A stretch of DNA of 64,000 nucleotides from Gemmatimonadota bacterium (GTDB lineage Bacteria; Gemmatimonadota; Gemmatimonadetes; Palauibacterales; Palauibacteraceae), in contig OY762926.1 of assembly GCA_963666735.1 (NCBI GenBank), positions 2,112,001-2,176,000 on the forward strand, written 5' to 3'. A model generated the notes under the pieces. The model was not told the origin of the DNA and did no database searches. It was given only the letters and a program-made list of their open reading frames with translations. Shown one piece after another: positions 31,878 through 33,667 of this stretch; positions within the stretch are counted from its first letter, which is position 1; the number at the start of each line of letters is the position of its first letter. Both the position numbers and the translations under genes were made by a program.

Positions 31878-33179
31878 ATGCACCATTTCAAGGACTTCAA
31901 GAGCTTCCGCGACGCGGGGATCGATCTATTCCGCCCGCTCACGATCCTCATCGGCCCCAATGGTTCGGGTAAGACCAACGCGCTTGAAGCGATGGAGGTT
32001 CTCTCGGCTATCGCGTCCGGACGGCACCTGCACGAGATCGCCGACCTCGGCAAGAGGGCCGCCCTCAACGTTCGCGGCGGCCTCCAGGCCTGCGTGCGAT
32101 ACGGCGGCGAGACTCTTACGCTATCCTTCCGTTCCAATACCAAGTGGCAGAGCCGGAAGCGCGGAATCCGATATAGCGTATCAGTGAAGCCCCGCCCGGA
32201 GCCGCGGATCTTCTCCGAGTCGCTGGGGCTCCCGGGTAACGACGCAACCTCCGCCGACGATACGATGCTGTTCGAAACCCTAGGGATCGACGGCCCTGGT
32301 TCTGCGGACATTCGCGTCCGATACAACAACTTTGCGCAGGGCCCTCACAAGCCCCAGGTGAGCGTCTCCGCCACGCGTTCGGTGCTGTCGCAGTACGAAC
32401 GGTTCGCCTTGAAGAACCGGCTACTAGATGCCTCGCTCAAGCAAATCTCGGGTCTACGTCGGTACCTAGCCGCCTCCTTCATGTTCGACCCAAGACCGCA
32501 GGCGATGCGCGGGTATGAGCGAATCGGAAGCGAAGTCCTCCTCCGTGACGGGTCCAACCTGTCCTCGGTCCTCTTCGGCCTCCACAGCAATGGGACGGCG
32601 GGGAGGGAGATCCTGGACTCGTTGTTCGAATACATCCGTTGTGTCCCAGAGGAGTCGTACAGCAAGTTCGAGTTCGTGGAGACCGAACTCGGCGACGTGA
32701 TGCTCGGCATGCGGGAACAGGGTTCCGGCCTGCTCACCGTCGCCCGAGTTCTCTCCGATGGCACGCTTCGTGCCCTCGCCGTACTTACGGCCGTAGCGAC
32801 CAGCCCGGAGGGGTCGCGCGTGGTGGTCGAGGAGTTCGACAACGGCCTCCATCCGAGCCGCGTGTCGGCACTCGTCGCGGCCATCGCGGACATGGGCGCC
32901 AAGCGCAGCGTCTACGTGGTGCTCACCACTCACAATCCGGTCACGCTCGACTCCCTGACGGATGATCAGCAACAGGGCGTTGTCGTTGCGTTTCGATCTC
33001 TGAAGGACGGGAGCAGCCAACTACGCCGGTTGGTGAACCTCCCTCGCCACGACGAGTTGCTTGAGCGGGGCACTCTGGGCGGCCTGGTGACGCGCCGAAT
33101 CATCGATCAGTACCTCAGCGACGACCTCGACCAGGTCCGCGCCAAGCAAATGCGACGCTGGCTGGAGGAACTCGAGTAG
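31878..33179 (+). CDS. Non-transporter ABC-type ATPase (AAA_21/COG4637-like)
   Basis: DFKSF, Walker A GPNGSGKT, signature LSDGT, Walker B/D-loop VVVEEFDNGLHP, H-loop TTHNP; no transmembrane segments. Confidence 0.88.
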   Translation: MHHFKDFKSFRDAGIDLFRPLTILIGPNGSGKTNALEAMEVLSAIASGRHLHEIADLGKRAALNVRGGLQACVRYGGETLTLSFRSNTKWQSRKRGIRYSVSVKPRPEPRIFSESLGLPGNDATSADDTMLFETLGIDGPGSADIRVRYNNFAQGPHKPQVSVSATRSVLSQYERFALKNRLLDASLKQISGLRRYLAASFMFDPRPQAMRGYERIGSEVLLRDGSNLSSVLFGLHSNGTAGREILDSLFEYIRCVPEESYSKFEFVETELGDVMLGMREQGSGLLTVARVLSDGTLRALAVLTAVATSPEGSRVVVEEFDNGLHPSRVSALVAAIADMGAKRSVYVVLTTHNPVTLDSLTDDQQQGVVVAFRSLKDGSSQLRRLVNLPRHDELLERGTLGGLVTRRIIDQYLSDDLDQVRAKQMRRWLEELE

Positions 33180-33667
33180 TGCGGACCGTCTTCGTGCTCG
33201 ACACCAGCTATCTTTGCGAGTTGTATCGGGTTCCCGGCTTCCACCGGCCGGAGTTGTCGAAGCGGATCAAGGAACGTATACGGCAGCATGAGACGAGCCA
33301 GTTCTACGTGCCGCTGGCGTGCCTGTACGAGCTTTGTGATCACATCGGCGACGTCACCGATGGCCGGCGGAGGCAGGAGATCGCCCTCAAGGTCGTTGCC
33401 CATGTCGAGGCCAGTGCGGCGGACGCTGGGCCGTGGCTCATCGTCCCGGCGGTGGATGTCAAGGCTAAACTGCCGCAATTGTTGCGGGATTTCTTGGCGG
33501 ACCCCCTCCGCCTACAAATGGGCTTGACGGACTCCACGATTGTGAGCGAGGCGCATCGCCTCAAGGAAAAGTACTCCGCTTCTCTCGACTACCGCGTCCA
33601 CATCTGGACTACGGACACGACACTCAAGGCACACGAGCCGGACGCGGAACTCGACCCGCTGCTTTAG
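33179..33667 (+). CDS. PIN-domain protein (putative RNase) coupled to the ATPase
   Basis: FVLDTSYL, LYEL, GLTDSTI and IWTTD give the four acidic PIN residues; TAGTG stop/start overlap. Confidence 0.75.
   Translation: MRTVFVLDTSYLCELYRVPGFHRPELSKRIKERIRQHETSQFYVPLACLYELCDHIGDVTDGRRRQEIALKVVAHVEASAADAGPWLIVPAVDVKAKLPQLLRDFLADPLRLQMGLTDSTIVSEAHRLKEKYSASLDYRVHIWTTDTTLKAHEPDAELDPLL

Follow-up and report, generated by a model that had tools for sequence, protein, structure and literature searches.

Two overlapping genes at positions 31878 to 33667 of the window, by which we mean the whole 64,000-nucleotide stretch of Gemmatimonadota DNA that was analysed, encode an ABC ATPase and a PIN protein and represent an intact, solo, chromosomal copy of PDC-M07, a catalogued two-gene candidate anti-phage system, and not a new kind of system. 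Membership of PDC-M07 is almost certain. The best overall explanation, to which we assign a probability of about 0.5, is that this solo copy specifies a PIN RNase that is restrained by the ATPase and unleashed by a phage trigger. An anti-phage or anti-mobile-element role as such is likely and, given a defence role, the balance leans towards an ATPase that restrains the PIN protein rather than one that only activates it. As a discovery the pair matters little, since the family is catalogued and its architecture has been validated in HEC-03; what is added here are testable predictions for PDC-M07, namely a VapC20/26-like PIN protein, one-sided decay, a slot between hsdS and hsdR, and a clade devoid of the acidic tetrad. 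The remaining interest lies in the mechanism, the VapC20/26-like fold and this tetrad-less sister clade.

Two genes of a catalogued family

ORF1 (PDC-M07A; 31878..33179, + strand) starts with ATG, encodes 433 residues and is defined by the list of open reading frames, its AAA_21 and PADLOC matches and its fold; a GGAGG motif resembling a ribosome-binding site lies 6 bases ahead of the start codon (31867..31871, +), a call made on sequence only. A profile search matches the protein to AAA_21 (PF13304, E 4e-26). Alignment locates, all on the + strand, a Walker A motif GPNGSGKT (residues 26-33; 31953..31976), an ABC signature LSDGT (residues 292-296; 32751..32765) that is conserved in the family, a Walker B/D-loop segment VVVEEFDNGLHP (residues 315-326; 32820..32855) and the H-loop histidine H352 (32931-32933), and these four elements are conserved across 55 aligned relatives; motif inspection of ORF1 did not identify a Q-loop. 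LSDGT is a variant of LSGGQ, the transporter-type ABC signature. The predicted structure (pLDDT 89.5) resembles the heads of Rad50 and SMC proteins, PtuA (Z 18.0) and AriA (Z 16.3) in structure comparison. The domain match and the model mark ORF1 as a soluble ABC ATPase of the AAA_21 family with a predicted Rad50/SMC-head/PtuA/AriA-like fold, much as an earlier, sequence-only reading had proposed when it described a soluble ABC ATPase with its motifs intact.

ORF2 (PDC-M07B; 33179..33667, +) begins with GTG and encodes a VapC-like PIN protein of 162 residues, as judged from homologues, the PADLOC match and the fold. Its start codon has one base in common with the TAG stop codon of ORF1 (TAGTG), confirming the overlap that had been noted for the two ORFs. 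Neither Pfam nor NCBIfam, PF01850 included, yields a match to ORF2 itself; PF01850 is matched by 29/117 of the ORF2 homologues (E <= 0.01). The PIN assignment rests on these homologues, on neighbours in the ESM Atlas (score 0.96, two clusters labelled PIN) and on the predicted fold. A full profile scan retrieved 292 relatives at E <= 0.001, and when the window protein and 116 homologues of full length are aligned (117 sequences), an acidic tetrad is placed on the + strand at D8 (33200; kept in 115/117), E51 (33329; 110/117), D118 (33530; 111/117) and D146 (33614; 95/117). The C-terminus bears a conserved LKAxEPDxE motif that is specific to the family.

The predicted structure of ORF2 (pLDDT 95.6) adopts a PIN fold along its whole length. 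The top VIA-align matches are VapC26 (Z 13.5, with an rmsd of 2.6 over 132 aligned residues) and VapC20 (Z 13.4, with an rmsd of 2.4 over 128), followed at Z 12.0 by the next, and 16 among the first 18 rows are VapC-type or PIN by title. Foldseek likewise ranks VapC26 best (E 2.9e-3), in agreement with VIA-align at weak E-values; it gave no match at E <= 0.001, and a comparison of the ORF2 profile with solved structures found nothing below E 0.19. The PIN-like ORF with four acidic residues of the sequence-only reading is thereby upheld. VapC20 and VapC26 are both described as cutting 23S rRNA in its sarcin-ricin loop (PMC5175351). Their lead over other VapCs is only ~1.5 Z, and with identities to ORF2 of 11-17% the likeness in fold does not fix its RNA target.

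Both products were assigned with the HMM library of PADLOC-DB 2.0.0. ORF1 matches PDC-M07A at E 1e-100 over residues 3-432, its five top matches all being PDC-M07A and the next family, HEC-01A, trailing at 1e-33; ORF2 matches PDC-M07B at E 7.6e-49 over residues 3-161, with no other family at E <= 0.1, and the PDC-M07B model is matched by 117/117 of the ORF2 homologues. The A and B genes lie adjacent on one strand in the window. Rejected as assignments for ORF1 were HEC-01, MADS3 (E 2.6e-16; its 60 bits fall short of the cut-off, which is 420), AbiL and a transporter ATPase.

The sequence-only reading did not recognise the pairing as a named system and had counted a match to a described system against its own proposal; the pair does match one, PDC-M07, and its layout, in which a VapC-like PIN protein accompanies an ABC ATPase, has been validated as HEC-03. 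The PDCs are 145 candidates that Payne et al. (bioRxiv 10.1101/2024.01.29.577857) describe as lying within BREX, DISARM or type I restriction-modification (RM) systems and call untested, this embedding being the criterion by which they were chosen. The main text of that preprint does not name M07, and its supplements, outside the scope of this analysis, may annotate M07B as PIN. A literature search found no paper that names PDC-M07 or tests it functionally (the ABC ATPase classification of Krishnan et al. 2020, outside its scope, may list the pairing), and a search on HEC-03 with PIN and ATPase returned the original preprint alone. As far as its available text goes, a cold-seep preprint tested eight other candidates and not M07.

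The cassette and its surroundings

The pair occupies an accessory cassette (31774..33680, +) between two converging stop codons, delimited by congener comparison and G+C content. To its left, and outside the system, a GcvT-like gene and two flavin amine-oxidoreductase genes are found, of which the adjoining one (30175..31773, +) was recognised by domain search; no more than 104 bases lie between the stop codon of the flavoprotein gene and the ORF1 ATG. To its right, and likewise outside, lies a converging glyoxalase/VOC gene (33681..33963, -) with an internal deletion identified by congener comparison: 143 bases that a congener has are missing from it, and it is therefore frameshifted. Beyond it follows malate dehydrogenase. 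The position between a flavoprotein operon and a truncated VOC gene thus stands as first described, and so does the remark that no antitoxin or transporter membrane gene is adjacent, since among the window ORFs neither a membrane gene nor a small gene of antitoxin type adjoins ORF1 or ORF2.

The impression that the block differs from its flanks in GC skew had to be abandoned (-0.03 in the cassette against +0.02 and -0.05); the contrast is one of G+C content, which at 0.627 against 0.70-0.71 in the flanks places the cassette in the lowest 3.6% of 2093 genome windows. The GC3 of the two genes is 0.79-0.80 against a window median of 0.87. Faulty assembly does not account for the cassette sequence: in three of four sequencing runs, some of which may be the source sample, contigs span both genes with no differences, those of the fourth run cover the genes from 31798 onwards, bar an 8-base gap, and no contig joint that skips the cassette occurs in the four runs. 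Searches for sigma-70-like promoters gave no match and those for terminators a single one, at chance level; by eye, no obvious insertion-site repeats mark the cassette junctions.

The close relatives of the host belong to Ca. Palauibacter (Gemmatimonadota). Four of 24 congeners have the pair at the same site, 14 have linked flanks without the pair and six are undecided, their flanks being on separate contigs or unmatched. Among the 14 linked empty sites, 12-20 bases lie between the flanks in five and DUF222-type inserts in two. The occupants of this gap include a DUF222-HNH gene in G023 (L120:576-1979), a similar broken copy in G003 (L018:2854-4257) and inserts of ~100 bases in G002 and G024. 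What had been taken for an inserted cassette is accordingly an accessory one, which 4/24 congeners carry and 14 lack where the flanks are linked; because cassette and flanks show 80-89% identity in the carriers, with a dS of ~0.7, the insertion is not recent.

Several other genes in the window deserve a record of their own. A SoFic-like Fic gene (37256-38557, +; E 3e-46) and two tandem GmrSD-family genes (42601-45995, -) are situated 3.6-12 kb from the cassette, and two AAA_14+DUF4143 genes match PDC-S01 (15641-16702 and 46246-47403; Pfam for the first only). The window further contains ordinary toxin-antitoxin genes, namely a pair of Phd/YefM and PIN type (19253-19902, -), another PIN gene (52588-53007, +) and HipA with an upstream HTH-like gene (53024-54531, -), as well as two tandem similar genes with lipoprotein-like signal sequences (24123-24629 and 24693-25178, -).

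Linkage, decay and placement of the pair

The two genes travel together. In the ATPase-first set, which comprises the best 80 of 111 ATPase loci in GTDB genomes, a PIN-profile match lies directly downstream in 74/80, and the other six consist of two PIN remnants, one contig edge and three loci with nothing. The converse PIN-first search covered 401, 400, 401 and 301 genomes of four groups, of which 13, 5, 5 and 13 matched, centres included, and a PIN search of metagenomes added 2 loci; an ATPase gene is found directly upstream in 31/34 scored PIN-first loci, the exceptions being two PIN fragments and one weak match, and beside 25/25 full-length PIN matches. Co-occurrence, which the sequence-only reading had proposed as a check, is thus strict in both directions. 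Start and stop codons overlap by 1 or 4 bases in 53/65 intact pairs, and the pairwise identities of ATPase and PIN proteins correlate (Spearman 0.80, over non-independent pairs). The pair is present on 7 plasmids at E <= 1e-40; the ATPase has no match in 50,697 phage records (E <= 1e-20), and none was obtained in E. coli genomes (blastn with a distant member) or in 14 control genomes.

Decay was counted over 105 unique loci. Five were left out, of which three lie at contig ends, one, doubly deleted, fell to the edge rule and one is a weak match. In 66 of the 100 that were scored both genes and the tetrad are intact; an intact ATPase stands beside an altered PIN tetrad in 15 and beside a PIN gene that is broken or absent in 12, and six have a broken or absent ATPase together with a broken, absent or altered PIN; the last (L132) combines an intact PIN with an ATPase that is incomplete where the contig start cuts it. 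Genuine loss of the ATPase beside an intact-tetrad PIN was therefore seen in none of the 100 scored loci, in a count that is small, in which the ATPase-first set (best 80 of 111) favours intact ATPases and some breaks may be assembly errors. The PIN-first loci alone give 4 versus 0 (binomial p 0.006, breaks being assumed to fall by gene length), the ATPase gene being 2.7 times longer than the PIN gene and hence the larger target.

This one-sided decay favours an ATPase that restrains a toxic RNase. It sits awkwardly with an alternative in which the pair is anti-phage but the ATPase acts as activator or scaffold, the PIN protein being inert alone, both genes being needed and neither behaving as in a toxin-antitoxin system; breaks that strike the longer ATPase gene first should then be common, yet none accompanies an intact PIN. 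Tight translational coupling suits an activator, and so does DS-5, a two-gene PIN system described as non-toxic on deletion of the partner and hence an example that need not be toxin-antitoxin-like (PMC13092281); the need for both genes in HEC-03 fits either model. We consider an activating ATPase unlikely.

The pair also occurs inside other defence operons. In L146, L148 and L175 it lies in-operon between hsdS and hsdR of a type I RM system, an arrangement that occurs on two plasmids of Photobacterium, of which one was viewed, on one of Vibrio and in L175, and in L173 it is flanked by pglW and pglX of BREX; on the two cyanobacterial plasmids viewed it is solo. Enrichment in defence islands, a further check suggested at the outset, is not apparent, because a credible defence gene within two genes was found in 9/47 contexts, or 11/158 neighbour genes, against 5/44 genes in the window, where the contexts come from the ATPase-first loci, sorted into groups by the neighbours they share, and the window serves as a rough control. 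Dropped from this count were ABC transporters (two in L068, one in L082), a short match to the DrmD model (L050), methyltransferases (L065, L116), a GTPase (L095), a kinase (L100), an ankyrin protein (L082), a repeat protein (L107) and the gene at window position 38713. Embedding in RM or BREX systems occurs but is confined to a minority of these loci, and most copies are solo.

Such solo copies amid housekeeping genes speak for a second alternative, selfish addiction or a general stress toxin-antitoxin function, in which the ATPase would be an antitoxin with no specific anti-phage trigger and the module would stabilise itself or the plasmid that bears it. One-sided decay suits any toxin-antitoxin pair, seven plasmids carry the genes, and in a congener the chromosomal gap that houses the cassette holds mobile cargo of DUF222-HNH type. 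The position of relatives inside operons, with hsdS and hsdR or pglW and pglX on either side, speaks against it, as does the recurrence of AAA15/21 ATPases as immune sensors (PMC11464382); moreover the PIN gene is often lost outright, so any addiction must be weak. Addiction or general stress is in our judgement quite unlikely to be the function.

A simple catalytic model does not fit the whole family equally well. Within the genus dN/dS is 0.37 for the PIN gene and 0.17 for the ATPase gene, both well below 1, and the PIN protein of one congener carries E51Q. In the sister clade of the window PIN (9 rows, support 99/94) D/E-K/Q-N-N replaces D-E-D-D in proteins of full length, with a dN/dS of ~0.27 (14 usable of 45 pairs), and because these proteins are maintained in this way a purely catalytic role for PIN fits badly. 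This tetrad-poor clade belongs to Longimicrobiales (L042, L044, L048-L051, L053, L056, L057, L059 and L079), and its ATPase motifs are intact in the ten checked. The PIN protein of the window lineage could thus be non-catalytic and bind RNA or a partner, or the cassette could be decaying cargo of little current function; the sister clade, E51Q, the higher dN/dS of the PIN gene and the absence of the cassette from the linked site in 14/24 congeners are in keeping with this. The window copy, however, retains the four acidic residues and all the ATPase motifs found, dN/dS is well under 1 for both genes, and 66/100 scored loci are intact with the tetrad. This is an improbable account, the least probable of the three alternatives.

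The host genome (G000) has at least 12 further AAA_21-type ATPase loci (L134-L145), 11 of them with a called downstream partner ORF, and the window pair belongs to a set of roughly a dozen cassettes of this ATPase-partner kind in the genome. The loci are of HEC-03 type, HEC-01-like, PDC-M38-like (two), NsnB+NsnC-like (three), PD-T4-4A-like (two) and AbiL-like (one), with two others. One locus (L136:369-2241) joins a PDC-M07A-like ATPase (E 6e-69) to a different partner of 193 residues with no PADLOC or Pfam match at the cut-offs used, an apparent effector swap; in another (L135:640-2522) a third ATPase precedes a 157-residue partner that starts like a PIN protein (IIDVNVL) and has no model match at the cut-offs used.

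A proposed mechanism and its relation to known systems

In the mechanism that we favour the ABC ATPase would bind the PIN RNase and hold it inactive, standing in for VapB. Upon infection the ATPase would sense a phage product, plausibly an anti-restriction protein because relatives sit in type I RM and BREX operons, a trigger suggested only by this placement and by those that are listed as setting off PARIS and PrrC. The ATPase would then free the PIN protein, which would cut RNA needed for translation, and the infected cell would stop in abortive infection or dormancy, as in PARIS with its TOPRIM nuclease. That a PIN effector is held by the ATPase in a defence setting, the core of the sequence-only reading, is likely in view of the RM/BREX placement and the one-sided decay. 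The RNA cut may be tRNA or, going by the closest folds, 23S rRNA's sarcin-ricin loop, which as the target of PIN is doubtful. Were it true, PDC-M07 would be an ABC-ATPase immune system that hits the ribosome, a target that phage-encoded tRNAs could not replace, and would offer a route round the phage tRNA counter-defence described for PARIS. A more elaborate version, which is quite unlikely, would make PDC-M07 a split PrrC-like guard of restriction or BREX systems, with the ATPase replacing VapB over a VapC20/26-type toxin that cuts the sarcin-ricin loop when anti-restriction is sensed, and with a second, non-catalytic PIN mode in the tetrad-less Gemmatimonadota clade.

The proposed restraint is modelled on PARIS, where AriA is described as sequestering the AriB toxin until a phage protein frees it (PMC11464382). 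Both systems have an AAA15/21 ABC ATPase upstream of a nuclease, in line with the AriA fold match; the PARIS effector, however, is the TOPRIM protein AriB, whereas that of the window is a PIN protein, no AriB model was matched, and the AriA model matches ORF1 in part only (E 2.5e-26). PtuA of Septu and retron PtuAB systems is the top Foldseek and sequence match to ORF1 among solved structures, but the window pair has a PIN protein in place of the HNH partner PtuB, and no retron, and identity is 12-17%. PrrC is a single protein whose ATPase is fused to a HEPN nuclease. In PrrC and RloC the ATPase and RNase share one polypeptide, whereas here, as in the 65 intact pairs, they are two ORFs in different frames. 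The placement of PDC-M07 relatives between hsdS and hsdR recalls PrrC, described as an ABC ATPase with an RNase that serves as a back-up inside type I RM (bioRxiv 10.1101/2024.01.29.577857); the window copy differs from these embedded relatives, and from those in BREX, in being solo.

With VapBC type II toxin-antitoxin systems ORF2 has the PIN fold and the four acidic residues in common, but VapBC has a small DNA-binding VapB upstream where ORF2, like all 25 full-length PIN-first loci, has an ATPase, here of 433 residues. VapC20 and VapC26, the closest folds, differ from ORF2 in the low identity given above; ORF2 is moreover ~30 residues longer and has its own C-terminal motif.

The window pair shares its layout with HEC-03, which joins an ABC ATPase to a VapC-like PIN protein, has no VapB and is reported to defend E. 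coli with both genes required (bioRxiv 10.1101/2024.01.29.577857). A true HEC-03 is encoded in the same genome at L134:134-2487 (G000:C1:1694987-1697340; E 2.4e-202 for the ATPase and 5e-56); its PIN ORF extends without a change of frame into PF09414, an RNA ligase domain at residues 150-308, and could unite a toxin with a possible repair enzyme or be the product of a deletion that joined them. The names in PADLOC-DB run opposite to those in the paper, HEC-03A denoting the 159-position PIN model and HEC-03B the ATPase. The HEC-03 ATPase model (PDLC04148) is absent from the best 25 of 114 families matched by ORF1, which reach down to 9e-12. The two systems belong to different sequence families: the HEC-03 PIN model (PDLC04147) matches only L134 genome-wide (E <= 1) and 0/117 of the ORF2 homologues (E <= 0.05), and profile comparison of L134 with the window family gives a probability of 2% for the PIN proteins and of 60% over 76 columns for the ATPases.
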